DNA of 64,000 bases from an uncultured Chlorobiaceae bacterium (GTDB taxonomy: Bacteria > Bacteroidota > Chlorobiia > Chlorobiales > Chlorobiaceae): contig CAIXCO010000280.1 in assembly GCA_903917955.1 (NCBI GenBank), positions 3,450 through 67,449 of the forward strand, given 5' to 3'. The position numbers and the translations under genes are program-made. Positions 5,533 through 45,042 of the stretch are shown here, in pieces; the stretch's first letter is position 1, and each line of letters opens with the position of its first letter. The notes beneath the pieces were generated by a model. It was not told where the DNA came from and made no database searches. It worked only from the letters and a program-made list of their open reading frames with translations.

Positions 5533-7134
5533 TTACCCGCCAAGCGACTCTTTTGCCTGCCGGAACACCTCTACAGAGACCATGGTGTCACCGTTACCCC
5601 GGGCAAAGGTTTCTGTGTTCTTCCGCACTTTTTTACGAACAAAGAAGGGCACCTTCTTGAGCATGGTTTCTGCCTCATCGCTCCACTTCATCTCTCCCTC
5701 CTCTGCAATCGTCACAACATCGGCTGCGACCTCCGGTGATAGATGGTCATTACTGGCAGACGGCTGTGGCTCTTCAGGGGATACGGATGCTTCGCTCTCC
5801 TCATATTCAAGACCAGCGTCACCGAAAAAGTCGATAAGATGCTTTTCGAGGCCAAGTTTGCAGGAGAGATAGACCCTGTCGGCAATAACATCGGCACCAT
5901 CAAAACCAAAGAAGGGGTAGTAACCGAGCAGATGATTTTCAATATGGGTCGGTGGACAGACCACCATGCAGGGAACATCGAGCTTGCGGCAACTGTGACG
6001 CTCCATCTGTGTGCCACAAACCAGGTCAGGCATTTGATCGTCGATGATTTGTGCAACATCCTGGAACTTGTCGGTGACAATGAGTGCTCCGGGAAGGTAG
6101 CCCTCAAGCTCCTTGCGTACCCAATCGGCGTGACGCTCCAGATAGGTACCAGCACCGATAATCTGCATACCGAGTTCGTCGCGCAAAAACTTTACAAGGG
6201 CAACGGTATGGGTCGCGTCTCCAAAAACAAAGGCGCGTTTGTTGCTGAAACTCTCCATGTCGGCTGTTCGGGCAAACCAGGGCACACCGCTTGGGGCACT
6301 CTGGCCGTCAAGCGAAAATTCGTGCATCTTGGGCATGGCAATCAGGGGAACTCCCCGTTCAGCACCTGCCGCATTCAGCTTCTCGATCAGGGAGCGGAGC
6401 CATGCAAGCGTGGGCTCGACCCCGATCGGAGCTTCGTAGAGAGCTGGCATATCGAAGGTGTCAGCAAGATATTCCGCCGCCGTTGTCCCAATTTCGCGAT
6501 AAGGGGCGATATTAAGCCAAGCGGCTGGCAGTTTCCGAAGATCGTCAATGCTGGCTCCCCATGGGGCAACAACGTTGACCGCAATGCCAAGCGTCTGCAA
6601 CATGCGCCGGATGCTTGTCAAGTTGGCACGCAAATGAAAACCAAGTGAGGTAAAGCCAAGCAGGTTCACTGAAGGCTGCGCTGTTTTCTCCTGGGCAACG
6701 GCATAGCGTTTCACCAGTTCGGTCAACAAGCCGTCAGCCGCTTCGTTTTCCGATACCCTGAAGGGGTTCAGCGCATAGACCAGAATTTTTTCCTTTGGTA
6801 AACCTGAATGGGCTGCCAGTTGATGAAGATCTTCCTGGAGAAGAGCCGTGCTGCAGCTCGGCGCAATAACGATAAGTTCAGGATTGTAGTGGTGATCGAC
6901 CTGCTGAAGTGTTGCGGGAAGTCTCGATACTCCCTGGGCAAGGTCTCTTCCACGAACCACACTGATCGACAAGCCGGGAAATTGCGGGGTTCGTTCAAGC
7001 ATGGTATAGGTTGCCGTGATGTAATCATCTCCCTGGGGAGCATGATAGACGGTATGAACCCCTTTCATACTGTTGGTAACGCGGCTGATACCATGGAGGG
7101 CAGTGCCCTCGTAGAGCCAGAAAGCTAAGCGCAT
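5533..7134 (-). CDS. bchB: DPOR subunit B
   Basis: [26 protein letters not shown]-terminal PCP_red domain ([15 protein letters not shown]). Confidence 0.97.
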
Positions 7135-7175
7135 ACTCTTGTGTCGTTTGTTTATTGCATTTTCGGGTCGGTGAA

Positions 7176-8438
7176 TTATTCAGCGCTCGGCATGACTCCT
7201 TCAAGCCAGACCTCCCGGTCGAACGCTGGCAACTTGCTGCGGCGCTGGAGCGGTGAAACGAACATGTTGGCCAGAGTAACAACTCCCGACCAACTGTGAA
7301 TGGACATCAGCATGAATTCCATGCTCCACTTCACAACAAAACCGTTGCCAACAAAAGGGTTGGCCGTCATCAGCGAAGTGATGATCAAGTCGGGCTGGAT
7401 GCGGCGGACATCCTCCAGTTGACGATGAAAATTTGGCTGCTCAACGACGCGAACACCATCAAGAGCCTCAAGTTCTCGCGCATGAAATTTTTTGTTGATA
7501 TAGGCACTGCTGCATTCGACCACATCGGCCCCGGCACTGTGGAGAAAACGTGCAAGCGGCAATTCCATCATAGTATCGGCGGTCAAAAAAACTTTTTTGC
7601 CTTTAAGAAGCTCCGTCTGATTGCGGATCTTCTCCCATGCAGCTTTTTCACGGTCACGAAGATCGACAGTAATCCCGAATTCGCGGGCAAGATCCTCCCA
7701 GAAGGCTCGCGTACCATCGGGACCGAAAGGAAAGAGTGAATGAAGTACGCTGGCGCCGCGTTCACGGGCAAGCTTGACGGCAACCCTTGAAAGATAGGGT
7801 TGAATCGGTGCAAGAACGGTATCGGGGCCAATGGCTGGCATTTTGTCGAAACGGGACTCAGGAAGAAACCCGCCGACCGAAATTCCGAGCGCTTCGGCCT
7901 CTGCTCTGAGGTCATCAGCCGTCACGTCGTTGACCGAGCCAAGGAAAACCACGCTTTTCTGACCTGCCGGTGCTACGGGACAGAAAGGAACAAGAGCGGA
8001 GAGCACCGAGTCCTCTGCCTGGGTAAAATTATAGACCAGACCGCTTGCAGGCACAAAAAGTACCGGCACATCTGGCGTACTGAGCAGATGGGCAAGCCCC
8101 TTGAAATCAACCTTCATCACCTCGGGAGTACACGAAGAGAGAAGAAAAATCACCGATGGATTATGGTCGGCCTTGATTTCACGGATAATTTCCTCGAGGG
8201 TCGGTTCATTCTTTGAAAGATCGCCCTCCTCCATAAGGGCAATACCAAAGCGCGGCTTGGCAAAAATCATCATGCCGAGAGCATTCTGCAAAAAATGGGC
8301 GCAGGTATGTGTGCCAAGCACAAGAAAAAAGCTGTCCTTGATTTTCTGGTACATCCAGCCAACACAGGCAAGACCACAAAAACTATGCGTAACGTTATCT
8401 TCCTTGATAACCTGAATATCTCGGGAAAGCTGCATCAT
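7176..8438 (-). CDS. bchN: DPOR subunit N
   Basis: [25 protein letters not shown]; adjacent to bchB and bchL. Confidence 0.96.
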
Positions 8439-8534
8439 GACTGTTTTCTTTTGAGAGTTACTGCCCGCAATAAAGCTGTGTTATAGATGCCAAACGTAAA
8501 GAGAGGTGAAGATAAAATATTTTCAGTAATCCCC

Positions 8535-8855
8535 CTACTCTTCCGCTCCCCTCGCCTGGACTATTTTCGCTTTGACTGAAGCACTTTTTTCGCCAAGGCG
8601 GACAGCCCGATCACGACGGTCATCAATCTTCATAACCGTATAGACACGCTTGCCGCCCTGACTGAACGAGTACTCATGAAGCTTTAGCGCGAGATCGAAC
8701 AGCAGGGGCGCCGGCCCTTCAACCGTCGTCCCCATATCGTGAAGCCTGAAACTGCAACCGCTTGCGGCAAGAAGCTCCTGTAATCCGGCAACAAAGCCGC
8801 TCAGGCTTCCCTCCTTGCTGTCGAGAGGAAGAACTGCGATATCCATCAATGCCAT
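8535..8855 (-). CDS. MTH1187 / thiamine-binding family protein
   Basis: IAVLPL, L..MGTTVEG, RVYTVMKIDDRRD. Confidence 0.85.
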   Translation of the reverse strand: MALMDIAVLPLDSKEGSLSGFVAGLQELLAASGCSFRLHDMGTTVEGPAPLLFDLALKLHEYSFSQGGKRVYTVMKIDDRRDRAVRLGEKSASVKAKIVQARGAEE

Positions 8856-8871
8856 AACAAGAGTGGTTTAT

Positions 8872-10769
<1,898 letters not shown>

Positions 10770-10913
10770 ACAAAAAGAGCGGTCACAAAAAAAGAGCTAT
10801 AAAAAAGGAAGCTAAAAACCTTGCGTTAAAAACCCAAATGTTTAACTTTCATCGGGCCATTCAGGCGTACTAGACCCTCATTTCACCATAAGAAAAAGGC
10901 AGAACAGCAGAAG

Positions 10914-12368
10914 ATGTCACTCTTCATTTATAACTCCCTCGGCAGAACAAAAGAGAAATTCGAACCCCTCCACCCGGGGATTGTAACCATGTATGTATGC
11001 GGGCCAACCGTCTATGGCCATGCCCACCTTGGCCATGCAAAAAGCTATGTCTCATTTGACGTAGTCGTTCGCTGGCTTCGCCATAGCGGGTACCGGGTCA
11101 AGTATGTGCAGAACATTACTGATGTGGGTCACCTGACTGATGACGCCGATGAAGGCGAGGACAAAATCATAAAACAGTCGCGCCTCGAACAAACCGACCC
11201 CATGGAAATTTCGCAGTTCTACACCCGAAGTTTCTATCATGATATGGATCAAATGGCGGTTCTTCGCCCCAATATTGCTCCCGCTGCCACAGCCCATATT
11301 CCCGAGCAGATTGCCCTGGTTGAGCGGTTGATAAAAACCGGCCACGCCTACGAGGTCAATGGGAACGTCTATTTCTCTGTCGCATCGTTTCCGGCCTATG
11401 GCAAACTTTCGGGACGCACTGACCAGGATGCACTGCAATCAGGTGCAAGGGTAGAGTTACGCTCCGAAAAACGCCACCCTTCCGATTTTGCACTCTGGAA
11501 AAAGGCCGATGAGCAGCACCTGATGAAATGGAACTCTCAATGGAGTCTCGGCTATCCCGGCTGGCATCTGGAGTGTTCGGCAATGTCGATGAAGTATCTT
11601 GGAGAGACGATTGATATTCACGGTGGAGGGATGGAGAACAAGTTTCCTCACCACGACTGTGAAATCGCCCAATCAGAATCGGTAACCGGCAAACCCTACG
11701 TCAGGTTCTGGATGCACAACAACATGGTGACCATCAATGGAATAAAAATGGGGAAGTCCCTGAAAAACTCTGTCAATTTGAACGAGATTTTCAACAATAT
11801 CGACCCGCTGGTCATCCGCTTCTTTATTTTGCAATCCCACTACCGATCACAACTTGATTATTCCGAAACCGCTATTAAGGCATCAGCAACCGGACTTGAA
11901 AAACTCCATGAGAGCCGGCGGCGACTTCGGGAACAAAGCCCGGGAAGCGGAACTTTCGAGAGTGCAGAATTCCTGCAACGCTTTACTGATGCAATGGATG
12001 ATGATTTCAACACTCCGATAGCCATTGCGGTGCTGTTCGACTTCTCCAAATCGCTGAACGCGGCCCTTGATCGTATCGAAGGCATATCAGAAAGCTCCCG
12101 GCAAGAGGCAGAGGCTTTTTTTGACAAAGCTGGGCGAGAGATTCTCGGTATAGTGCAGGACGGCGGCCAATCAGGAAACCGGGGTGAAGAATTAAGCGGC
12201 CAAAAACTCAACTGCGTGATGGAGATTCTGCTTGAACTGCGGGCTGATGCCAGAAAAAACAGGGATTTTTCCCTCAGCGACAAAATACGCGACCAGCTCC
12301 TTGATGCCGGAATCGAAATCAAGGATACAAAAGAGGGTGCGAGCTGGTCAATAAAAAATGGGCTCTAA
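10914..12368 (+). CDS. cysS: Cysteine--tRNA ligase
   Basis: YVCGPTVY, HLGH, GWHLECSAM, KMGKS. Confidence 0.98.
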   Translation: MSLFIYNSLGRTKEKFEPLHPGIVTMYVCGPTVYGHAHLGHAKSYVSFDVVVRWLRHSGYRVKYVQNITDVGHLTDDADEGEDKIIKQSRLEQTDPMEISQFYTRSFYHDMDQMAVLRPNIAPAATAHIPEQIALVERLIKTGHAYEVNGNVYFSVASFPAYGKLSGRTDQDALQSGARVELRSEKRHPSDFALWKKADEQHLMKWNSQWSLGYPGWHLECSAMSMKYLGETIDIHGGGMENKFPHHDCEIAQSESVTGKPYVRFWMHNNMVTINGIKMGKSLKNSVNLNEIFNNIDPLVIRFFILQSHYRSQLDYSETAIKASATGLEKLHESRRRLREQSPGSGTFESAEFLQRFTDAMDDDFNTPIAIAVLFDFSKSLNAALDRIEGISESSRQEAEAFFDKAGREILGIVQDGGQSGNRGEELSGQKLNCVMEILLELRADARKNRDFSLSDKIRDQLLDAGIEIKDTKEGASWSIKNGL

Positions 12369-35893: not shown

Positions 35894-36019
35894 GACGTTC
35901 ACCCATAGTACACCTCTATAATCATATCCGATAACTCTCTTGTGCTGTGACGATACCAATACTCACGAATTGGCCAACAGCGAACTCATCAACCTGTTGA
36001 ACCCTGAGTTTCCGCACTA

Positions 36020-37223
36020 ATGTCATGTCACTCTTCAATTGTCGGATAAAGTCGTAACAGCTTTATTCTCGCCTTTTCGTTTGTAAAACGCCAATTTATC
36101 TTGGAATTTTTATTGTTTCGTTCCATCTCCCATGCTGCAACTTCCGACCTGACTTCTGTAATCGTATCAATGCGACGGTTCAAGCATTGAGTCGTCAAAA
36201 CTCTCAATTCTATCTCTGCCATATTCAACCAGCTTCCGTGTTTTGGGGTATACACAAACTCGAACCTATCCAATAACTCCTTTGCTTTATTTGGTTTAAG
36301 TGTATGATATAATGATCCTGGCTCATGCGTATTGAGGTTGTCCATCACCAGCGTAATCCGTTTTGCATGCTTGTACTAATTGGCTATTTCTTCAAGGAAT
36401 TTTGCCCAGTCAGGTCTTTTTCTGTTTGTGGTTATTTGAACCATCCGTTTTCCGACCAACGGTTCATTGGCCATAAAAATATTACAGGTACCATTCCTGC
36501 TGTATTCATAATCATATCTGGCCAACTGCCCAGCTCTTGCCGGTATCGGTGTTCTTGTTTCAGCAATCAACTGCTTTGGTGATTCATCCATGCAGACAAC
36601 CGGGTACAGGGGGTCATAAGGTTGCTTATAAACGTCAAGCACCATCTCCATATGTGCCACAAAATTCCCATCACTGAGCGGAGGAATTATCCATCCATCC
36701 TTTTTCCAAGGCTTAATGACGTTTTTTTTAAAACCCTTCGGACGGTCTCATAGGAAATATTGTCCACATAGTCCAGTTCGACTACCTTATCTACCAATAA
36801 GCTAAGGGTCCACCGTTTATGCCCTTCGGGTGCGGGTGAGCAGCTCAGGGCTATCAAATGAGCTTCAAAGTCCCCATCTGCTTTCCTGCGATACACTTGT
36901 ATTGACGGCTTTCCTGTGAGGGCCACATCAAAACCCTCCTCTATAAATCGCTTTTTTACCCGGTCTATCGTTTTCATGCTGATATTCAGAACGCACGCAA
37001 TGGTTTCGTTTATTGAACGTTCTATCTGGTATTCGCCTTCATCACAAGCCAGTAAAATCAAGGCATTCAGCATCGTTTGAGCCGCGCGCTTTCCTTTGTT
37101 ACTGAGTGCATTCAGTTCTTTTCTCTCTTCTTGGGTCAGGGTCACTTTGTACTTCTTCATAGTCAAATCTTGGTTGGTGATTATGAAGAATGAGATAACG
37201 CTTTTATACGAATGACATGACAC
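36020..37223 (-). mobile_element. IS630-family insertion sequence, 1204 bp
   Basis: Terminal inverted repeats aTGTCATGTCAcTC / gTGTCATGTCAtTC flanked by duplicated TA (36018-19 and 37224-25). Confidence 0.9.
36028..37160 (-). pseudogene. IS630 transposase: orfA/orfB joined by -1 slippery site, premature TAG at 36376-78
   Basis: orfA MKKYKVTLT..., slippery TTTTAAAAAAAAC near 36721-36733, VCMDE, MDNLNTH, PKHGSWLNMAE; in-frame TAG between the catalytic D residues. Confidence 0.88.
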
Positions 37224-37290
37224 TAATTGGCGAAGTCGGGAGACGTTACTGTGATGGGCAACTTCACGTTATGCAAAATATTTTTCGACT

Positions 37291-37305
37291 GGGGGCTTTG
37301 CCCCC
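37291..37305 (-). other. GC hairpin (GGGGGC-AAA-GCCCCC) 32 nt downstream of the DUF1566 stop; candidate DGR target-recognition stem-loop
   Basis: Perfect 6-bp GC stem with 3-nt loop, no adjacent U tract. Confidence 0.55.
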
Positions 37306-37337
37306 GGTACCCCCTTAATTGTTTAATTGATAAATGG

Positions 37338-38144
37338 TTAAAAAGCCCGCACAGCCCGAACCCGACCGTGGCGCGTCTTAATGTTCCAGCCCTGGCCCCC
37401 ACTGCCGAAGGACTGGCTCCATGCGCTACCCGCACCGATCTCCGTAGAACTCCAGTAGCCGTTAACCGCAAAACCGCCAACAACATTTCTATTACTGCAT
37501 AGTTGCGCCAGCTCGTCTCTGCTTGGCAAAAACCAGTCGCTACGCCCACCACCTCGATACGCTTGTGCTACCGCAGCAGCACTGTTCGGATAGCGCGATG
37601 GTGAATATTTTGTCAGTATTTTTTCTGTATTTGATCTTCCAGTTCCGATTCCTGTGCTTGTACCCAATAAACCATAAGCATAATCCGGAGCATCGGCATT
37701 CTTGTCTTCGCCTGTACTCCATCGAAAAAAAATTCCTGTTGATCCATAAGTTGCACCCCATTGGTCTGTATACGGTTTGCAAATATCCTCCCTGGCTACA
37801 ATCAAGCCATGCTGCCCACTGGCATCAACGTAAAATACAATGCCTCCGCCATATTCGTCGTTGATTTTGAGTCTCCCTGAAGAGTCAGGGGTAGTATGCG
37901 AAGTATAGTGGGAGCTGTAGGAACTGTATTGAGAAGAGTAGGGAGAATACGAGCTATATTGCGCACGATCGTAGGAGGAGTAGGAGGAGGAGTAGGAGGA
38001 AGAGTACATGTAGTGGGAGTAGTATTCATACCCTGCGAACGCATCACGCCCTAACGCAAGAGAGGTTATTGCGCCTGCAGCACTGAGCGCCAGCATTTTT
38101 ATCGCCTCTCGTCGGTTTATCGTTTTTTCTGGTTTATCATCCAT
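37338..38144 (-). CDS. Tat-exported protein with Tyr/Ser-rich tract and C-terminal DUF1566 (CLec-fold) domain; putative DGR target
   Basis: INRREAIK twin-arginine + hydrophobic + AFA cleavage site; YSSSYSSSYSSY tract; GGIVFY, DWFLPSRDEL, YWSSTE...AW...F...VRAVRAF; RBS AAAGGAGA. Confidence 0.85.
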   Translation of the reverse strand: MDDKPEKTINRREAIKMLALSAAGAITSLALGRDAFAGYEYYSHYMYSSSYSSSYSSYDRAQYSSYSPYSSQYSSYSSHYTSHTTPDSSGRLKINDEYGGGIVFYVDASGQHGLIVAREDICKPYTDQWGATYGSTGIFFRWSTGEDKNADAPDYAYGLLGTSTGIGTGRSNTEKILTKYSPSRYPNSAAAVAQAYRGGGRSDWFLPSRDELAQLCSNRNVVGGFAVNGYWSSTEIGAGSAWSQSFGSGGQGWNIKTRHGRVRAVRAF

Positions 38145-38242
38145 GCTCACTCTCCTTTCGCTTTTGAATTAATGGTTGCAAGTGGATACGATTCAGAGAA
38201 ATTACTTTTTTTAGTCTTTACAGCAAAAACTTTCCCGGGCGC

Positions 38243-39076
38243 TCATTGAACATCTTTGCTGTTGACCATTTTCCACACATCCTCTGCTGTTATGGATGCC
38301 ATGCAATGATTGACCTCGGTACAGGGCACTCCATACTGGCCACCACGAGTTGGGCCAATACAAGCGGGTGTGCATTGTTTTTCAGCTGAAATATGCCAAT
38401 GCCCTTCATAGCCATACACTGATAAAAGCGTTGGCCCCCAGAGAATAATGGCAGGTTTTTTAACCAGTTTGGCAGCATGCATGGCAAAACTATCAGTGGA
38501 TATCAAGAGATCACACTCTTTCAGCAAGGCGATCAATTCAAGCGGCGTGGTGAGCCCCAGCAACGACAGAGCTCCTGGAATATATGGCTCATCCAATCGG
38601 CCTGTCTGAAGAACACTCCACCCCTCTTTCCGAAATCTTGCGGCAAGCGCTGCCCACTCGCGCCTCTCCCACTTTTTGCGTGGTGAATCTGTATTTGCAG
38701 AAAACACAACTCGCGGACGCAGTGGCGGAAACGAGGGCCATGGAAATGATAGCTGCTCCATATTGGGCAGCCACAAACGTTCTGACACCGGCAACGGCAA
38801 ATTGAACTTTTCGGCAAGGCACTGAAATGCACGCCCGCCCTGCCGATAACGTTCCGTGCTCCAATAGTCAGTGCCAATCAGCGTTGCCGTCCGAGGTGGC
38901 GAACCAACAAAACTAATCGCCGGATGATGCGCTAAAAATGGCAGATATTTGGTACGGCGAACAAGTTGAAAACGACAATCAGGATCGCGCTCCAGAGCTA
39001 ACTTGAGCACACCGGAGAGCATCAACGTGTCGCCAAGTCCGCCAAGCGGGTTAATCCAGGTAATCTCTTCCTGCAT
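38243..39076 (-). CDS. Glycosyltransferase family 9 (heptosyltransferase-like)
   Basis: GGLGDTLM, RKKW, CDLLISTDSFAMHAA, IILWGPT, four C-terminal Cys; start at MQEEI with GGAG RBS, overlapping the upstream rSAM stop. Confidence 0.85.
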   Translation of the reverse strand: MQEEITWINPLGGLGDTLMLSGVLKLALERDPDCRFQLVRRTKYLPFLAHHPAISFVGSPPRTATLIGTDYWSTERYRQGGRAFQCLAEKFNLPLPVSERLWLPNMEQLSFPWPSFPPLRPRVVFSANTDSPRKKWERREWAALAARFRKEGWSVLQTGRLDEPYIPGALSLLGLTTPLELIALLKECDLLISTDSFAMHAAKLVKKPAIILWGPTLLSVYGYEGHWHISAEKQCTPACIGPTRGGQYGVPCTEVNHCMASITAEDVWKMVNSKDVQ

Positions 39077-40163
39077 ACAATGCTCCGGTAATCGGTTCAA
39101 AATATTCGGTAATAAATTTTTTTTCGGCACATCCCCACGGGCTTTGACGAAGAAGATCGCCATGAACAGCCCATCCATCCAGAGGGCAACCACCATGGCA
39201 GAGACTCCAGAAACGGCAATCAACACACTCACTATTGCGAAGGAGCGCATTGCGATTTTCGAGCGCCTCCCGTTGTGGATCATTCAACACCACATCAAGA
39301 GTTTTATCCTGCAACATGCCGTAGTCGAGCAAATCCCAGTCTTCGGAACGGCCACAGTGTGAAAGATGCCCGTCGGGAGCTATCGAAATATGGTTACGCA
39401 TACAGCTCCCGCTAAAAACACATCCAAGCGAGCGGTGATTTTCAATAATGTTGCGCACCAATGAGTTGAAAGGTTCAATCTTGCCATAACGTTCACGATG
39501 CGCCCACCACTCAGGAAAAATTTCCCCAAGAAAAGCCACATATTCATCGGGAGTAACTGCAAGGTCAGGCCTGCGGTTATGATACAGCAGCACCGGATGG
39601 ATGTTGAAACCACCACCGGTAATATTGACAAGATGATAAAAAATATCCAACGGGCGTTCAAGCGCTGGCTTGGTCAACACATAGATGATTCCTACCCCTA
39701 TGCCATGCTGTTCAGCAACCATTTTCCCTTGCAGAAACGCCCTGTTGTAGGTGGTGGTATCACAGATGGTTCCGGGCCCCCGTGCGCCATCAAGTGGATC
39801 ATAACTTGAACCAACAGAATGGATTCCAAGCTCCTTGAGCAATCCCGCCCACTCCTCATCCATGAGCATCAAGTTGCTCTGCATGGCGAAAGTGATTCTG
39901 TCTCGTGTTGTTTTACACACCGTTTCAAGGAGTTCCCGGCTCTTGATATAAAAGGGCTTCCCCATCAAGAGCGGTTCACCACCATGCCATATCCAGGTAA
40001 TGTCGCCGTCAGGATACGTTTCCAGGTAATCATTGACACGCTGAAACACAAGCCGCAACGTCGCCTCTGTCATATCATCGAATTGCCTCTTTTTTGTAAC
40101 CACATCGCAGTAAGCACAATGCGATGTACAACGTTCAGTTGGTTTAACAATCAGGGTCGGCAT
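39051..40163 (-). CDS. Radical SAM/SPASM domain protein (anSME/peptide-maturase-like)
   Basis: VKPTERCTSHCAYC, WHGGEPLL, QSN, SPASM cysteines C..C...GHLSHC...CVDCRFWSLCHGGC. Confidence 0.9.
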   Translation of the reverse strand: MPTLIVKPTERCTSHCAYCDVVTKKRQFDDMTEATLRLVFQRVNDYLETYPDGDITWIWHGGEPLLMGKPFYIKSRELLETVCKTTRDRITFAMQSNLMLMDEEWAGLLKELGIHSVGSSYDPLDGARGPGTICDTTTYNRAFLQGKMVAEQHGIGVGIIYVLTKPALERPLDIFYHLVNITGGGFNIHPVLLYHNRRPDLAVTPDEYVAFLGEIFPEWWAHRERYGKIEPFNSLVRNIIENHRSLGCVFSGSCMRNHISIAPDGHLSHCGRSEDWDLLDYGMLQDKTLDVVLNDPQREALENRNALLRNSECVDCRFWSLCHGGCPLDGWAVHGDLLRQSPWGCAEKKFITEYFEPITGALYAGRDYLD

Positions 40164-40612
40164 ACTGCTCCTCCTGGCTGTTTTTGCCTGTAGAGACGAG
40201 CATCAATAATTTCAGTGAAAAAGTCGCGGCATTGCGATGTGCATTGCTCTTTCCACTCGCCATAGCAGGCACGCCACCCCGGACAGTTGATGCAAGAGTC
40301 TCGGTTAATAAAACGCTCGTTCAACGCCTCTTGTTGCGGCGGAGGTTGTTCAATCATCGTCTCAAATGGCTCAATAATGGCATGTGAACAACGCCCGTAC
40401 ACAGCATAGACAAGAAGCTCACGTAATGCTTCCCAGTCAATCGTACCAAGAGAGAGATCCAGTGTTACCCGAACTCCCAGCGATGCAACTATCCTTGCTT
40501 TGGTCAGGTTTTCTTCAGTGGCAGGCAAGGAGACCGTTTCAGCTTGGAGATTCATCAGTTGTGGAATCCATTCTGCTGGACGACAGAATAAATCTACAGG
40601 TTTTGCAAGCAT
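40151..40612 (-). CDS. Small protein with SPASM-like Cys cluster
   Basis: CINCPGWRAC...CTSQC; overlaps both neighbours, suggesting translational coupling. Confidence 0.7.
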   Translation of the reverse strand: MLAKPVDLFCRPAEWIPQLMNLQAETVSLPATEENLTKARIVASLGVRVTLDLSLGTIDWEALRELLVYAVYGRCSHAIIEPFETMIEQPPPQQEALNERFINRDSCINCPGWRACYGEWKEQCTSQCRDFFTEIIDARLYRQKQPGGAVCRP

Positions 40613-41607
40613 TTATTAATCTCCGGAAGACGGATAAAAGGTTCATCTTTCATAGCTTTGAGTATATGGGCAGCACAACCGCCTTCGCAACGTTTTATTT
40701 CCCGTTGTTGACATTCATCGCACTCATAATGAATGCCTCCGGCTTCGGCACGAATATCATTCATTTGTGAGCGAAAATGGTCAAGCAACTCCTCAAGAGA
40801 GCTGAATTCATAGAGCGAACGTGGCGCAAGACGTGACAGCGGAAAGCATGACCAGACCATCATATCCGGCCCAATATCAATTGCGGGACCACAACCGAAA
40901 TTCAGTGGTGACGAAATCTTGAACAGCTTCCCCAGCTCTTCGTCAGTAAAAGAGCATAGCGTAAAGCCACAGTCAAGCCCAATCTGCAACCGGTTACGAG
41001 CAAAATCCTCGCTAAAAGAGAGCAACCGTTTCATTGCAGGACGAATTGAGCTGATTGAGAGACATTGGTTATCAGCACCGGGAATGGGCGCAGCAAGACC
41101 AAGACGCAGGTGACGCTTAAGCCCGTATCGATTGACGAGGTCAAACAGAAAGGTGAGGTCAAAGTCCGGTCGGTAAATGTTAAACCCTGGACCGCACTTC
41201 GTACCAAACTGCTCCAGAAAATATTCAACACACTCATTTTCTTTTTTCGGAGAAAGCGTTGGTTCATTCAGGTTGCAGACAAAATCCAACGGTATTTCCG
41301 GATCCGTCGGGAGAAAATGCCGTAAACTATCTGTCAGTTCCTGCGGTATCGCCGCACTGGTAAAAACCGTAACCTGAAAGCCACGTTGAAGCAGATAGAG
41401 TACCATGTCCGGAAAATGGCGATGCAGTAACGGTTCACCACCAAGCAACGACAGTCGCTTTTCGCCAGATGATTCAAAAAAATCAACAACATAGATCAAG
41501 TCCTCCCAACTGACCTCAGCATGTAAATCATTTGTACTCATGTGATCACGAGCAAAACAGTAAGGACATGTGCGGACGCACCTCCTGGTTAACAGCAGAT
41601 TAGCCAT
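40594..41607 (-). CDS. Radical SAM protein with C-terminal SPASM/twitch-like domain
   Basis: CVRTCPYC, LLGGEPLLH, CGPAIDIGPD..VWSCF, CDEC......CEGGC. Confidence 0.88.
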   Translation of the reverse strand: MANLLLTRRCVRTCPYCFARDHMSTNDLHAEVSWEDLIYVVDFFESSGEKRLSLLGGEPLLHRHFPDMVLYLLQRGFQVTVFTSAAIPQELTDSLRHFLPTDPEIPLDFVCNLNEPTLSPKKENECVEYFLEQFGTKCGPGFNIYRPDFDLTFLFDLVNRYGLKRHLRLGLAAPIPGADNQCLSISSIRPAMKRLLSFSEDFARNRLQIGLDCGFTLCSFTDEELGKLFKISSPLNFGCGPAIDIGPDMMVWSCFPLSRLAPRSLYEFSSLEELLDHFRSQMNDIRAEAGGIHYECDECQQREIKRCEGGCAAHILKAMKDEPFIRLPEINKCLQNL

Positions 41608-41740
41608 ATATCTGATTCAAAAATTTCCATAACACTCTATTCGATAGCTTTATCAGCAGATTTTTGAACGGAATGCTTTTATCTTTATGCAAAATAGCAG
41701 AAGTTCCAGCAATAAACGAATGGGGAAACCCTATAACGCG

Positions 41741-42584
41741 TTATTTTTTCCCTTGTGACTGCATCGACATTTTTGGCATCAATGATTGAGGGATGTGTAA
41801 TTCCGGCAGCGGCCAGCAACTCCCCGGCAAGTCATTTCGACTGAGGGATTTTCTGACAGCTTGACTCTTTGAGGGTGACGATTGTGCTGCGTATGGCCCC
41901 AAGTTCATCAATTCCTTCCAGCACGGAGCATTCACATTTTTTCCAGAGCTCTGATAGCAGTCTCTCAATTTTATAGGCAAGCATGACGGCAAAGACATGA
42001 CCACGGGTACTGGCTTCGGTTCGTACATGAACCGGTCTGATTTCCAGATGACTTTGTTTGAACGTCCGGAAAGCATGTTCCACTTTGGCCAGATCTTTGT
42101 ACCGGTCATGAACTTCTTTGGTCGAAAGAAGCTCTTTCTTTACATCAGTTTTGATCACATAACACCCATCGAGCAAAGCTGATCTTTTTAGGATTTCTTC
42201 TGTAAAACTTTCTAATTCAAGCACATCACAGGCGCCATAACTTGCAGCCATCCTGACCGCACCCAAGCGTGAACCTTGCCCGATCAATCGAGCCATGATC
42301 TGCCACAAGGCAAGCACTCCCTGACGGGTACTGCCCAGTGCCTTACTGATACCGAGTCTCTCAGCAAGCGTATTGAGCACAAACACCACGCCAACCCGGA
42401 AGGCCTTCATGAAGCTCAACATCCTCGACATGCAACAGAGCCGTCAAATTATCTTTGTACTTCAGGGCAAGTTTAATGGCGGCAATTTCACCTTCTGAAC
42501 ATTTTGAAATTTTGCCCAAAGTGCGATTCTTCACCTTGCCATCTTCACGATAGGATTCGCGAAAAAGATAACGCTGGTAGGTTT
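41741..42584 (-). pseudogene. IS1634-family transposase remnant (internally deleted, frameshifted)
   Basis: N-terminal RYLFRESYREDGKVKNRTL and C-terminal LDGCYVIKTD...YKDLAKVEHAFRTFK..LEIRPVH...RGHVF; central region missing. Confidence 0.8.
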
Positions 42585-42912
42585 AGCCAGCAACTCTGCA
42601 TCTATCCCGGCGATTGCAGCGGCCTCTTCATCACTCATTCCCTTCGCTACCAATCTTCTGGCAACTTCAAGTTTACCTTTCTCAAGGCCCTGTTCAATGC
42701 CTAACTCAATCCCCTGCGTCATTCCTTCACCAATACCCTCTTCCTTGCCTTCCATACGGGCAAAGTCATAGTTTGTTTCTACATAGCTGGCTTGATCGCG
42801 CAAGGAATCCTGATAACTGTTATAGGCACGAAGCTCTTCATCCGTCATGCGCAGCAGTGAAAACGACTCTTTTGCTTTCTGAATCCCCTTGGCTTTAAAC
42901 TCGTCCTTGATC
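42585..42912 (-). pseudogene. C-terminal remnant of an Rpn / PD-(D/E)XK transposase-like protein
   Basis: MTDEELRAY..Y..SLRD, EGKEEG..EG...GIEQGLEKGKLEVARRL...GM; N-terminus absent. Confidence 0.7.
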
Positions 42913-42941: not shown

Positions 42942-43703
42942 TCATATCGGGTTAATTCCTCTGTGCAGGTTACGGTATTGTAGCTTGTAGCCGTCAGCAG
43001 CATCAAAACAATCCTGTGCTGTACCAGGAAGAATGTCCGGGTTCAGAAGAGCTTGCATAACTTCTGGTTCATTCCGGAATTTTTCAAACCAAAGGCCAAA
43101 GAACCCGATTCCTTTTGCCCATTGAACCATTGATAAGGAAGCCAAATGAGCATGACCAGCCGCTTTGGCAACTTGATACAGGGTGAATGCTGATTCAACA
43201 GCAACAAGAGCGTCTCTTCGCTTTAGCCAACGTATGTCAACAATATTATTTCTTCTATCGATGTTTGCCAAACCCAGCAATGCAATGGTGTTTTCTGCTT
43301 TGCTCTGCTGAATCAATTCAAGATCTTCAGCTTTCTGAACGATTGCAGCATCTTCATGATTCGGATGAATACGGATTTGAAATGGAAGCAACGTGTTATT
43401 GTTTTCCGGAAAGTAGTAATCGTTAAAATCAACAGGCGTATTGCCCTTTGCATTGTTGCAGGGGCCGCAGGCAAACAGCATGTTCTCCCAGCCCAATGGA
43501 TTGCCAGAAGTGTACCCTGCTGGCGGGTTTTTGGGAACCACGTGTTCCATTTGCAGACTGTGGCTCAAGGGCATATTGCAATAGGCGCAATAGTACCCTA
43601 TACGATCAATCAATCTCTTGCGCCACAGCGTATAATCATGAACAGAAATCGGATCACCGGTCTCATCAGTCGGGCAGGAGCCCTTGTCCAATGGCCGCAT
43701 CAT
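42942..43703 (-). CDS. HNH endonuclease (Septu PtuB-like)
   Basis: CAYC...MEHVVPK...WENMLFACGPCNNAK; directly downstream of an ABC-type ATPase. Confidence 0.8.
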   Translation of the reverse strand: MMRPLDKGSCPTDETGDPISVHDYTLWRKRLIDRIGYYCAYCNMPLSHSLQMEHVVPKNPPAGYTSGNPLGWENMLFACGPCNNAKGNTPVDFNDYYFPENNNTLLPFQIRIHPNHEDAAIVQKAEDLELIQQSKAENTIALLGLANIDRRNNIVDIRWLKRRDALVAVESAFTLYQVAKAAGHAHLASLSMVQWAKGIGFFGLWFEKFRNEPEVMQALLNPDILPGTAQDCFDAADGYKLQYRNLHRGINPI

Positions 43704-43704
43704 C

Positions 43705-45042
43705 CTACTTTTGTACTGCCAGTTTATTCAATTCCAGAAAGGCTCTTAACCCCGGATCTGAAACATTGTCTATTTCAGCCTGTATTTCTACTTCCGATAC
43801 TCCCGTTTTCAGTTTACCCAATATCAATTGAGCAATATCATGTTTGCCTGTATTTTCATCAGAAAATGCGCTTTCAACACCCATGACACTTGTTGCCACA
43901 TCATCAATTTTCAAGCTGTTCAAGAGAACGTCAGTCAACCGGTCAAGATTGAGCAGTTCATCAGAAGCAAGCGACTGAACAATAAATGCGGAATGTGTTG
44001 TCACGACAAACTGAATATTCGGAAACGCACTCTTTAAATCTTTGACAATATGCCGTTGCCACTTTGGATGGAGGTGCATATCCAGTCCATCAATCAAAGC
44101 AATACCTCTCGACTCCTTTACAGCATCTCTCCCCAGAAAGCCATTAAGCACAACACACCTGAACGCCAATTCTGCTACCAGATTGAGCATGGCTTTCAAA
44201 CCATCACTCATGTTGGAGTGTGTCTTTTTTCCTGGATCTTGTTCATCAATGTTAACAACAGCTTCAAGCTCCTGGTAATGATGATTATATCCTACATCTT
44301 CCAGATAGGGAATTGCCGTTGAAATAGCTTCAAAGACCGCTTCCCGGGTACCTTCAAACTCTTTTTTGTACTTCAGCTCATTATCGTAATTATGAAGCCA
44401 CTCAATCACACCATCAAAATCTACCTTGTCAGAGAGTGCTGCCAAATAGCCCTTCTCCATTCTGCTTCTGTTTTGTTGGGCCTTTTTACCCTTGCGTAAC
44501 TGTGCCACAGTTCTTTCAGTGCCGAAACTGGCCAAAACAGGCAAAAGCGCTTTATTATGAAACCCTCTTCCTGATTCCACCAAATCCCTGATGGCATCAA
44601 TCAAATCTCCTGCATATTTCCTGTTATGGCTTGTTGTACCATTAGCCAGCATTACTCTGCTCCATTCTATTGGCCGTTCCTGAAAAACAAAACGGCCTTT
44701 ACCAATATTGAAAGGTTCATCCTTGCCAATCAATATGAATGTATCGCTTAACAAGCTGCCTGTAACTCTGATAAGTGTCTCATCCTTGCTGGAAATATAA
44801 TCCCTCTCCTCAGCAGCCCATTTAACAAATTTCTCCTGCCTTTTAAATTGTCTCCGATAAAGAGGTGATGCTGGAAGGGGCAAACATTGCAAACAAGCAC
44901 CCAAGCTGACCTGTAACGCATGAAGCAGTGATGATTTACCCATGCCATTATCACCGATGGCAACAGTAAAGTTTGAGTTCAAAAAAATCTCTTTTTTCTC
45001 AAACCCCCTGAAATTCTGGATATATAATCTGCTGATATGCAT
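43705..45042 (-). CDS. ABC-type ATPase (AAA_15/AAA_21, Septu PtuA-like)
   Basis: NFRGF, Walker A GDNGMGKSS, MSDG, Walker B LIDGLDMHLHPKWQ (E>G), TTHS. Confidence 0.8.
   Translation of the reverse strand: MHISRLYIQNFRGFEKKEIFLNSNFTVAIGDNGMGKSSLLHALQVSLGACLQCLPLPASPLYRRQFKRQEKFVKWAAEERDYISSKDETLIRVTGSLLSDTFILIGKDEPFNIGKGRFVFQERPIEWSRVMLANGTTSHNRKYAGDLIDAIRDLVESGRGFHNKALLPVLASFGTERTVAQLRKGKKAQQNRSRMEKGYLAALSDKVDFDGVIEWLHNYDNELKYKKEFEGTREAVFEAISTAIPYLEDVGYNHHYQELEAVVNIDEQDPGKKTHSNMSDGLKAMLNLVAELAFRCVVLNGFLGRDAVKESRGIALIDGLDMHLHPKWQRHIVKDLKSAFPNIQFVVTTHSAFIVQSLASDELLNLDRLTDVLLNSLKIDDVATSVMGVESAFSDENTGKHDIAQLILGKLKTGVSEVEIQAEIDNVSDPGLRAFLELNKLAVQK

Follow-up and report, generated by a model that had tools for sequence, protein, structure and literature searches.

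A mobile gene cassette in an uncultured green sulfur bacterium carries a gene whose 3′ end is the variable region (VR) of a diversity-generating retroelement (DGR), and comparison with a nearly identical copy in another green sulfur bacterium species (G094) shows a swap of this VR between two templates. The gene lies on the minus strand of the window, the whole stretch of 64,000 nucleotides analysed here, which belongs to a 2.42-Mb assembly of 391 contigs that is 87% complete (G000; contigs are numbered with C). The account that we find probable as a whole is that the VR rides on a horizontally transferred cassette without a DGR of its own, that it was likely rewritten by mutagenic retrohoming from whatever compatible template the host carried, that the matching template was likely lost in G000, leaving the variable tip frozen, and that this tip sits on a modified, exported stalk. 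Taken by itself, the loss of the template in G000 appears fairly probable, and the window VR is probably not a live one there.

The gene end is confirmed as a genuine DGR variable region by sequence comparison. The C-terminal peptide quoted in an earlier note on this DNA is present at the 3′ end of the minus-strand gene at 37338-38144, whose TAA stop occupies 37338-37340, and the GGGGGC-AAA-GCCCCC hairpin (6-bp stem, 3-nt AAA loop) that the note placed 32 nt past the stop is found exactly, at 37291..37305 on the same strand. The 2.42-Mb assembly has five stems of the type G5C-loop(3-5)-GC5, counted as 10 when the two strands are added up, and each stands just downstream of a VR, which exceeds chance: two on C48, two on C338 and one at the window VR. 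In the direction of the gene, a 5′ homology block (37470..37484, minus strand), shared over 15 nt with the G094 allele, 13 nt with the G094 template and 15 nt with the template on C48, is followed by the VR proper, a 117-nt tract (37353..37469) that differs from the G094 allele, and by an invariant 3′ end (37341..37352) resembling an initiation of mutagenic homing (IMH) element, a role suggested by work on Bordetella phage (Guo et al., 2011, PMC3240598). Templates of the family differ from their own VRs by one base within this invariant end. The stop and downstream landing pad (37271..37340, minus strand) match the G094 allele, a proven target, at 70 of 70 positions. Three VRs of the same scaffold, that of the window and two on C338, vary in 34 columns, 16, 17 and 1 of which fall at codon positions 1, 2 and 3; 24 of the 34 show an adenine allele, and 18 of 19 variable codons keep one fixed third base (C in 11, T in 5, G in 2), the remaining codon having C or G. 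The earlier note had pointed to codons ending in C or T as a mark of the VR: most do so, but this sign is weak alone, the gene body also reaching 55%, and the case stands on the comparison of sibling VRs together with the hairpin.

The encoded protein (P0001; 37338..38144, minus strand) has 268 aa from an ATG with a ribosome-binding site, or 270 aa if translation begins at the GTG at 38150, and consists of a leader, Tyr/Ser repeats and a CLec domain of the Lcl_C/DUF1566 type. The leader (38034..38144) is of twin-arginine type, with an RR motif, a hydrophobic stretch and A-x-A, a type shared with the stand-alone precursors described below; the Tat-leader profile TIGR01409 gives 13.6 of the required 16.7 bits for the orthologue P0003 and no match for the G094-type protein P0121, and tatC scores above its cut-off in G000. 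The repeat segment (37887..38033, 49 aa) contains 14 Tyr and 19 Ser with nine Y-x-S and no H-x-S motifs, and is likely a radical-SAM substrate; gain and loss of repeats change its length, and alleles of 266, 268 and 289 aa occur. The CLec domain (37341..37874, 178 aa) is recognised by PF07603 in Pfam (39.1 bits, cut-off 34.9). An AlphaFold2 model built with an alignment reaches a mean pLDDT of 94.9 (a single-sequence fold gave only 38), and its best Foldseek match is 8q4e, the C-terminal domain of Legionella Lcl (E 7e-10, rmsd 1.9, 24% identity). Profile, model and structure match thus agree that the VR forms the 3′ end of a CLec-fold gene.

Upstream of the target gene, and likewise on the minus strand, lie a glycosyltransferase family 9 (GT9) gene (38243..39283 as longest ORF, the real start probably being further downstream), a radical SAM/SPASM enzyme (39051..40163), a conserved 153-aa protein with no match in Pfam, NCBIfam or PADLOC (40151..40612) and a second radical SAM enzyme that exceeds a cut-off only in Pfam Radical_SAM (40594..41607). 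The best NCBIfam match of the SPASM enzyme is DynA, at 134 bits of a cut-off of 450; the other named maturases GrrM, YhhB and XyeB also stay below cut-off, and no NCBIfam family reaches its cut-off for the enzymes or precursors of the cluster. PADLOC gives no match for the target, the GT9, the SPASM enzyme or the small protein, and N-terminal viperin matches only for the second radical SAM enzyme. The mobile cassette, defined by sequence comparison as the segment in common with G094:C109, spans 37019..41696. Just past the hairpin lies an element with terminal inverted repeats and an HTH transposase in two frames (36018..37225, minus strand), which we take to be of the IS630 family and which is truncated in G094. 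At the upstream border (41832-42848, minus strand) are a DDE_Tnp_1 transposase fragment and an Rpn-like C-terminal fragment, adjoined by a PtuA/PtuB pair (Septu-type ATPase and HNH nuclease, 42942-45042, minus strand); a similar ATPase-HNH pair follows the DGR on C48.

Genomic context shows the target gene to be a fusion of a precursor with a lectin-like domain. We surveyed metagenome loci with an alignment of 26 SPASM homologues and considered ORFs under 330 aa as precursors. The four-gene cluster recurs among the best 80 of 490 loci, 22 of which were left out for an identity of at most 33%, although one of these, L178, also has such a precursor. Within this set a stand-alone Tyr-rich ORF of 68-253 aa with an RR leader accompanies the enzymes in 25 of the 58 closer loci and in 21 of the 27 loci of at least 6 kb, and the motifs Y-x-S (205) and Y-x-N (186) dominate about 620 Y-x-X triplets. 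The CLec domain is present in only two of 86 loci examined, those of G094 and G015, and when proteins of 175-559 aa were searched with the first 150 aa of P0003, the G015 orthologue, only P0003 and the G094-type protein P0002 came back (2 of 3194 candidates). The fused gene stays beside the enzymes in G000, G094 and G015, the target lying downstream of them in two genomes and upstream in the third. The SPASM enzyme was found in 4 of 137 genomes, and the enzyme alignment retrieved G000 only from a phylum sample of 251 genomes at E 1e-80; in G096 the enzyme stands at a contig end with no visible precursor. A deltaproteobacterial version of the cluster (L109, 3693-8067) combines a stand-alone Y-x-N precursor with a SPASM enzyme fused to GT9. 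Given this arrangement, the window gene likely encodes a tyrosine-repeat peptide that is exported and modified by radical SAM enzymes, joined to a lectin-like domain. The cluster context and the best profile matches, DynA and other cyclophane maturases, suggest that the paired radical SAM enzymes would cross-link the Tyr-x-Ser motifs, that the GT9 may glycosylate these repeats, and that Tat would export the product, in which a variable CLec head for ligand binding would sit on a modified stalk.

The copy in G094 provides the key comparison. Across the cassette, G000 and G094 are 99.3% identical over 3732 nt, and 94.6% over the 1012 nt that hold the VR and the end of the insertion sequence, whereas the tuf-fusA background is only 84% identical; this argues for recent horizontal transfer. 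The context differs as well, with the G094 cassette lying between insertion-sequence pieces. The G094 target is on C109, and its template, avd and reverse transcriptase (RT) are on C123, in a layout equal to that of the C48 DGR of G000 with a different template. Allele and template in G094 differ at 23 adenines and at no other base over 123 nt; in a 132-nt core, 23 of 24 differences fall on adenines (hypergeometric p 1e-11). These sequences show the G094 allele to be a remote DGR target. The proposal of the earlier note that this VR is diversified in trans is therefore borne out for the G094 allele, whose mismatches to a template elsewhere, on a second contig, all fall at adenines, but the part that places the responsible RT and template elsewhere in G000 finds no support.

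Against the same G094 template, the window allele shows 27 adenine and 12 other differences. The two alleles differ at 41 sites within 37353-37469 (codon positions 13/17/11), at only 2 in the next 468 nt and at none in the 70 nt downstream. So many differences in a 117-nt tract with near-identical flanks show, on sequence grounds, that one scaffold took the place of the other along the entire VR. Each allele has substitutions of its own, unlike any sibling VR, and retrohoming thus fits better than conversion; a swap by retrohoming after the transfer is likely. The scaffolds have 13-15 nt in common at the 5′ edge and agree in almost all of the GC-rich 3′ end, and end-to-end overwriting would be possible between templates that share such short 5′ homology and a near-identical 3′ end. 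As to direction, the window pad resembles pads of G094-type cassettes (59-67 of 70 positions) more than other pads (49-57 of 70), among them those of C338 (54-56 of 70), which suggests that the window state is the derived one; at its 5′ edge, however, the G094 allele has a single base of the window class, which speaks for the opposite direction. The cassette would then probably have come from the G094 lineage and been overwritten end to end by a second template. The G094-type allele, represented by P0002 and P0121, also appears in runs X2, X3 and X4, all of the same single study and not independent, which carry both of its changes outside the VR and skip 37361-37440. In run X2, a loose end at window position 37366 leads to a contig of depth about 560 with an RVRAVRAF-type end and pad and a different VR, a high-copy element with a related target. 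The G015 orthologue (P0003) was considered as a third scaffold: its VR has a C48-like ending with 14 non-adenine mismatches to the C48 template, and a search for a template of its own found none, which leaves a hint of a third scaffold only.

Two kinase-CLec genes on C338 have VRs that share the scaffold of the window VR and differ from it at 24 sites each (codon positions 10/14/0 and 9/14/1). Their DGR has lost avd, template and RT: after the first VR, avd stops at residue 64, and after the second no part of the cassette is left. This avd junction recurs in G015, whose second site has the start of avd fused to the 3′ part of an RT that is 71% identical to the C48 RT. Orthologous VRs of C338 and G015:C74 have nevertheless diverged at 19 and 16 sites (12/7/0 in the first pair); since the first pair shares the avd deletion, a template must have been supplied from elsewhere at some time later than this loss, and it may still be supplied. 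VRs of the window class occur in at least six genomes (G000, G015, G023, G090, G021 and G027), G090 and G023 being closer kin of G000 (tuf-fusA 94% and 92% identical). At the C338 locus (L052, 355-10738), which is syntenic with G015:C74, genes for Ser/Thr kinase-CLec, FHA, PP2C-CLec and FGE-sulfatase proteins are clustered, and orphan VRs with hairpins form the ends of two of the kinases. Roughly a dozen other DUF1566 genes of G000, on C180, C126, C140, C188, C2, C374, C101, C120 and C319, have no such hairpin. Several VR-bearing genes, on C319, C338 and C48, have the opening codons of avd behind them, as though targets had spread by duplication of a unit made of target, pad and avd start.

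The earlier note saw no RT in the window, and the three RVT_1 matches of the genome are indeed all elsewhere, on C48, C52 and C306. The C52 RT is group II intron-like. That of C306 (L003), a second DGR-like RT, is 32% identical to the C48 RT and ends at the contig end; an FGE-sulfatase gene adjoins it, and the contig lacks its template. C48 holds a complete DGR (6808-11828, L002) in the order target, avd, template, RT, second target, the targets being a pentapeptide-repeat/CLec membrane protein and a TIR-like/CLec protein. In the assembly, 87% complete, a search for avd, template and RT cognate to the window VR thus yields the non-matching C48 DGR and the deleted C338 cassette only. The near-copy differing at adenines alone, which the note proposed to look for, did not appear in a whole-genome ungapped scan, where the best non-self hits were VRs (18 and 20 non-adenine mismatches) and the C48 template (26 over 153 nt). 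In a pattern search for templates of the window class in 77 genomes of the genus, 14 places in 12 genomes matched, each of them a VR or a template of another scaffold, and a DNA search of 137 genomes of the order, with up to six candidates scored per genome, gave 27 places in 18 genomes and no fitting template. RT searches in G015, G023, G027, G021 and G022 returned the 71% remnant of G015 and matches of 32-41% only, and an exact search of viral_contigs for the template returned 0. The best templates seen have 12-20 non-adenine mismatches to the window allele, and none of them is cognate. Templates of this class could assemble or bin badly, since none was found in 77 genus genomes although the VRs occur in at least six. 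The related templates of G007, G026 and G082 (L011, L034 and L067) differ from one another in the last codons before the GC-rich end, which are partly adenine-poor, as if VR-like sequence had overwritten the templates, and a template-like repeat in G035 (L018, C28 about 370-519) has an in-frame TAG where others have GAG.

Two readings would keep a DGR at work on the window VR. According to one, which we judge unlikely, the gene is a live remote target: the cognate avd, template and RT would sit on an unassembled or unbinned piece and still diversify it in trans, and the swap between species would hold all the same. The incompleteness of the assembly is in keeping with this, as are the intact pad and hairpin and the divergence of the orthologous C338 and G015:C74 VRs at codon positions 1 and 2, even though both loci have the same deletion in avd. 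A fourth VR of the window class, about 21 differences from the window VR, is present in run X1, a possible source run, but absent from the assembly, which indicates that pieces are missing. X1 is represented by Logan contigs, which drop rare variants and some records. There, the depth over the C338 VR core (171) equals the sum of three VR contigs (49.3, 68.7 and 53), so that no template contig is left over, and 46 records matching the C338 VR at 80% or more, 8 of them among the matches listed, include no template-like contig by summed depth. The window VR itself lies on one 4555-nt contig of X1 with 0 differences, where contigs would drop rare variants, P0001 is identical on four contigs, and the site where the cassette would be expected is deleted. 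According to the other reading, the resident DGR on C48 is the partner. It is complete, its template fits its own two targets well (17 adenine and 1 non-adenine differences; 14 and 1), it shares the hairpin type and the 15-nt 5′ block with the window VR, and the G015 orthologue has a C48-like ending. Its template, however, differs from the window VR at 22 adenines and 20 other bases in the 123-nt core (22 and 22 over 144 nt), 13 of the differences being at third codon positions, which contradicts the pairing for the consensus allele, and over the 3′ half no identity run reaches 7 nt. Because of this missing 3′ match the C48 template probably cannot take over the window VR, and we regard the pairing as most improbable. 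The note's expectation of an active RT and template elsewhere in G000 finds no support in view of the C48 misfit, the lost C338 genes, the searches for a fitting template and the VR without variants on its one X1 contig, although a template in the unassembled part of this 87% complete genome is conceivable.

The remaining alternatives concern how the VR changed and what it is attached to. One alternative to retrohoming is that a different gene with a VR donated the tract through homologous recombination or gene conversion. The identity blocks of 15 and 12 nt at the ends of the tract could have served this purpose, and the genome offers over a dozen paralogous CLec ends. Yet no close donor is seen, both the C338 VRs and the unassembled VR being as distant as stated; the G094 allele has substitutions of its own, unlike its two sibling VRs; and the tract ends where templates end and leaves the pad untouched, whereas the C338 pads differ. 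We consider such an exchange very unlikely. Somewhat less so, but still quite unlikely, is that the Tyr/Ser segment is a low-complexity linker and the radical SAM and GT9 genes are passengers, the gene being an ordinary secreted DUF1566 target of a DGR. Low-complexity linkers are common in proteins, and the enzymes match no curated family above its cut-off. In 25 of the 58 closer loci (among the best 80 of 490), leader and Tyr repeats recur on their own next to homologues of these enzymes, which speaks against a mere linker, as do the retention of the fused gene with these enzymes in three genomes despite changed order and a tblastn search with the N-terminal part that found no second copy in G000.

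Remote DGR targets have precedents. Wu et al. (2018, PMC5758913) count 73 non-adjacent targets for 45 DGRs, and remote targets are stated to have escaped the survey of Roux (2021). As in the remote targets of Treponema denticola described there by Wu et al., a CLec (DUF1566/Lcl_C) target stands far from avd, template and RT, has a GC hairpin downstream and, here for the G094 allele, differs from its template at adenines only. Unlike those targets, as that paper describes them, a single gene is found here with two template scaffolds in two species after a recent transfer, and the window genome has no fitting template among those found. T. denticola SP32 has a remote target with a VR that matches not the resident template type but another; the gene was taken either for what a lost DGR had left behind or for one that had arrived by itself (Nimkulrat et al., 2016, PMC4891356). 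The difference is that two 99%-identical copies show both states here, and that the parts of that paper drawn on here describe no rewriting of a single gene by a second template. In Bordetella BPP-1, an IMH and a hairpin suffice to target a foreign gene, and at least 8 bp of identity suffices for 5′ integration (Guo et al., 2011, PMC3240598); such retrohoming into a heterologous gene, observed in an engineered phage system, would offer a mechanism for the swap. The BPP-1 consensus hairpin has 7-10 bp and a 4-nt GRNA loop (PMC3240598), compared with 6 bp and a 3-nt AAA loop in the window. In gut Bacteroides, a preprint reports the transfer on ICEs of whole DGRs, not bare targets.

For the protein itself, the nearest working analogy for the enzyme pair and exported repeat effector is the HXS anti-phage system, HxsA-D (Li et al., 2026, PMC13128918), which likewise combines two radical SAM enzymes, a small partner and an exported X-x-Ser repeat effector with a folded binding domain. 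The repeats here are Tyr-x-Ser, with nine Y-x-S against no H-x-S; TIGR03978 and TIGR03977 reach 49.9 of 370 and 17.2 of 267.9 bits, far from HxsB/HxsC; and, in contrast to HXS as described (PMC13128918), a GT9 is present and a CLec head bearing a DGR VR takes the place of the peptidoglycan-binding domain. With Legionella Lcl (8q4e) the CLec fold is held in common, the Lcl stalk being collagen-like, according to its NCBIfam name, where the window protein has a Tyr/Ser repeat. DynA, GrrM/OscB, YhhB and XyeB are cyclophane-forming radical SAM/SPASM maturases. They are the best profile matches of the SPASM enzyme, and aromatic-x-x motifs recur in the partner peptide; the scores are all below cut-off, and the presumed substrate here differs from theirs in being a long protein of repeats that has a leader of export type and a lectin domain. 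A term search of the main text of the DAG-RiPP paper (PMC13056109) found no Tat, radical, glycosyltransferase or lectin term. Our literature search, which covered material outside subscription papers and supplements, found no report that joins DGRs to Tyr-repeat radical-SAM precursors and none that describes such a VR template swap.

Although remote DGR targets are known, the natural hand-over of a target between DGRs has usually been deduced only from mismatched leftovers. Two 99%-identical copies with two VR scaffolds, one of them matched to the template of its host, make such a hand-over directly testable, and the boundaries of the rewritten tract can be read from the paired alleles. Through the fusion, a folded binding domain is added to a precursor type otherwise found alone, which points to a role in surface or periplasmic display, and the CLec part may serve as a purification handle for this otherwise stand-alone, uncharacterised group of radical-SAM precursors. 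A further-reaching reading, which we offer tentatively and regard as possible but somewhat doubtful, is a mobile, DGR-less "plug-in" cassette that makes a Tat-exported, radical-SAM-cross-linked and glycosylated stalk with a hypervariable lectin head and borrows any compatible DGR of its new host, so that the entire binding site is rewritten. If true, this cassette would represent a RiPP-type precursor under DGR diversification, as well as natural evidence that DGR targets switch templates after transfer, and its product could, by analogy with HXS, act in defence at the surface or in the periplasm, with a receptor open to re-programming.
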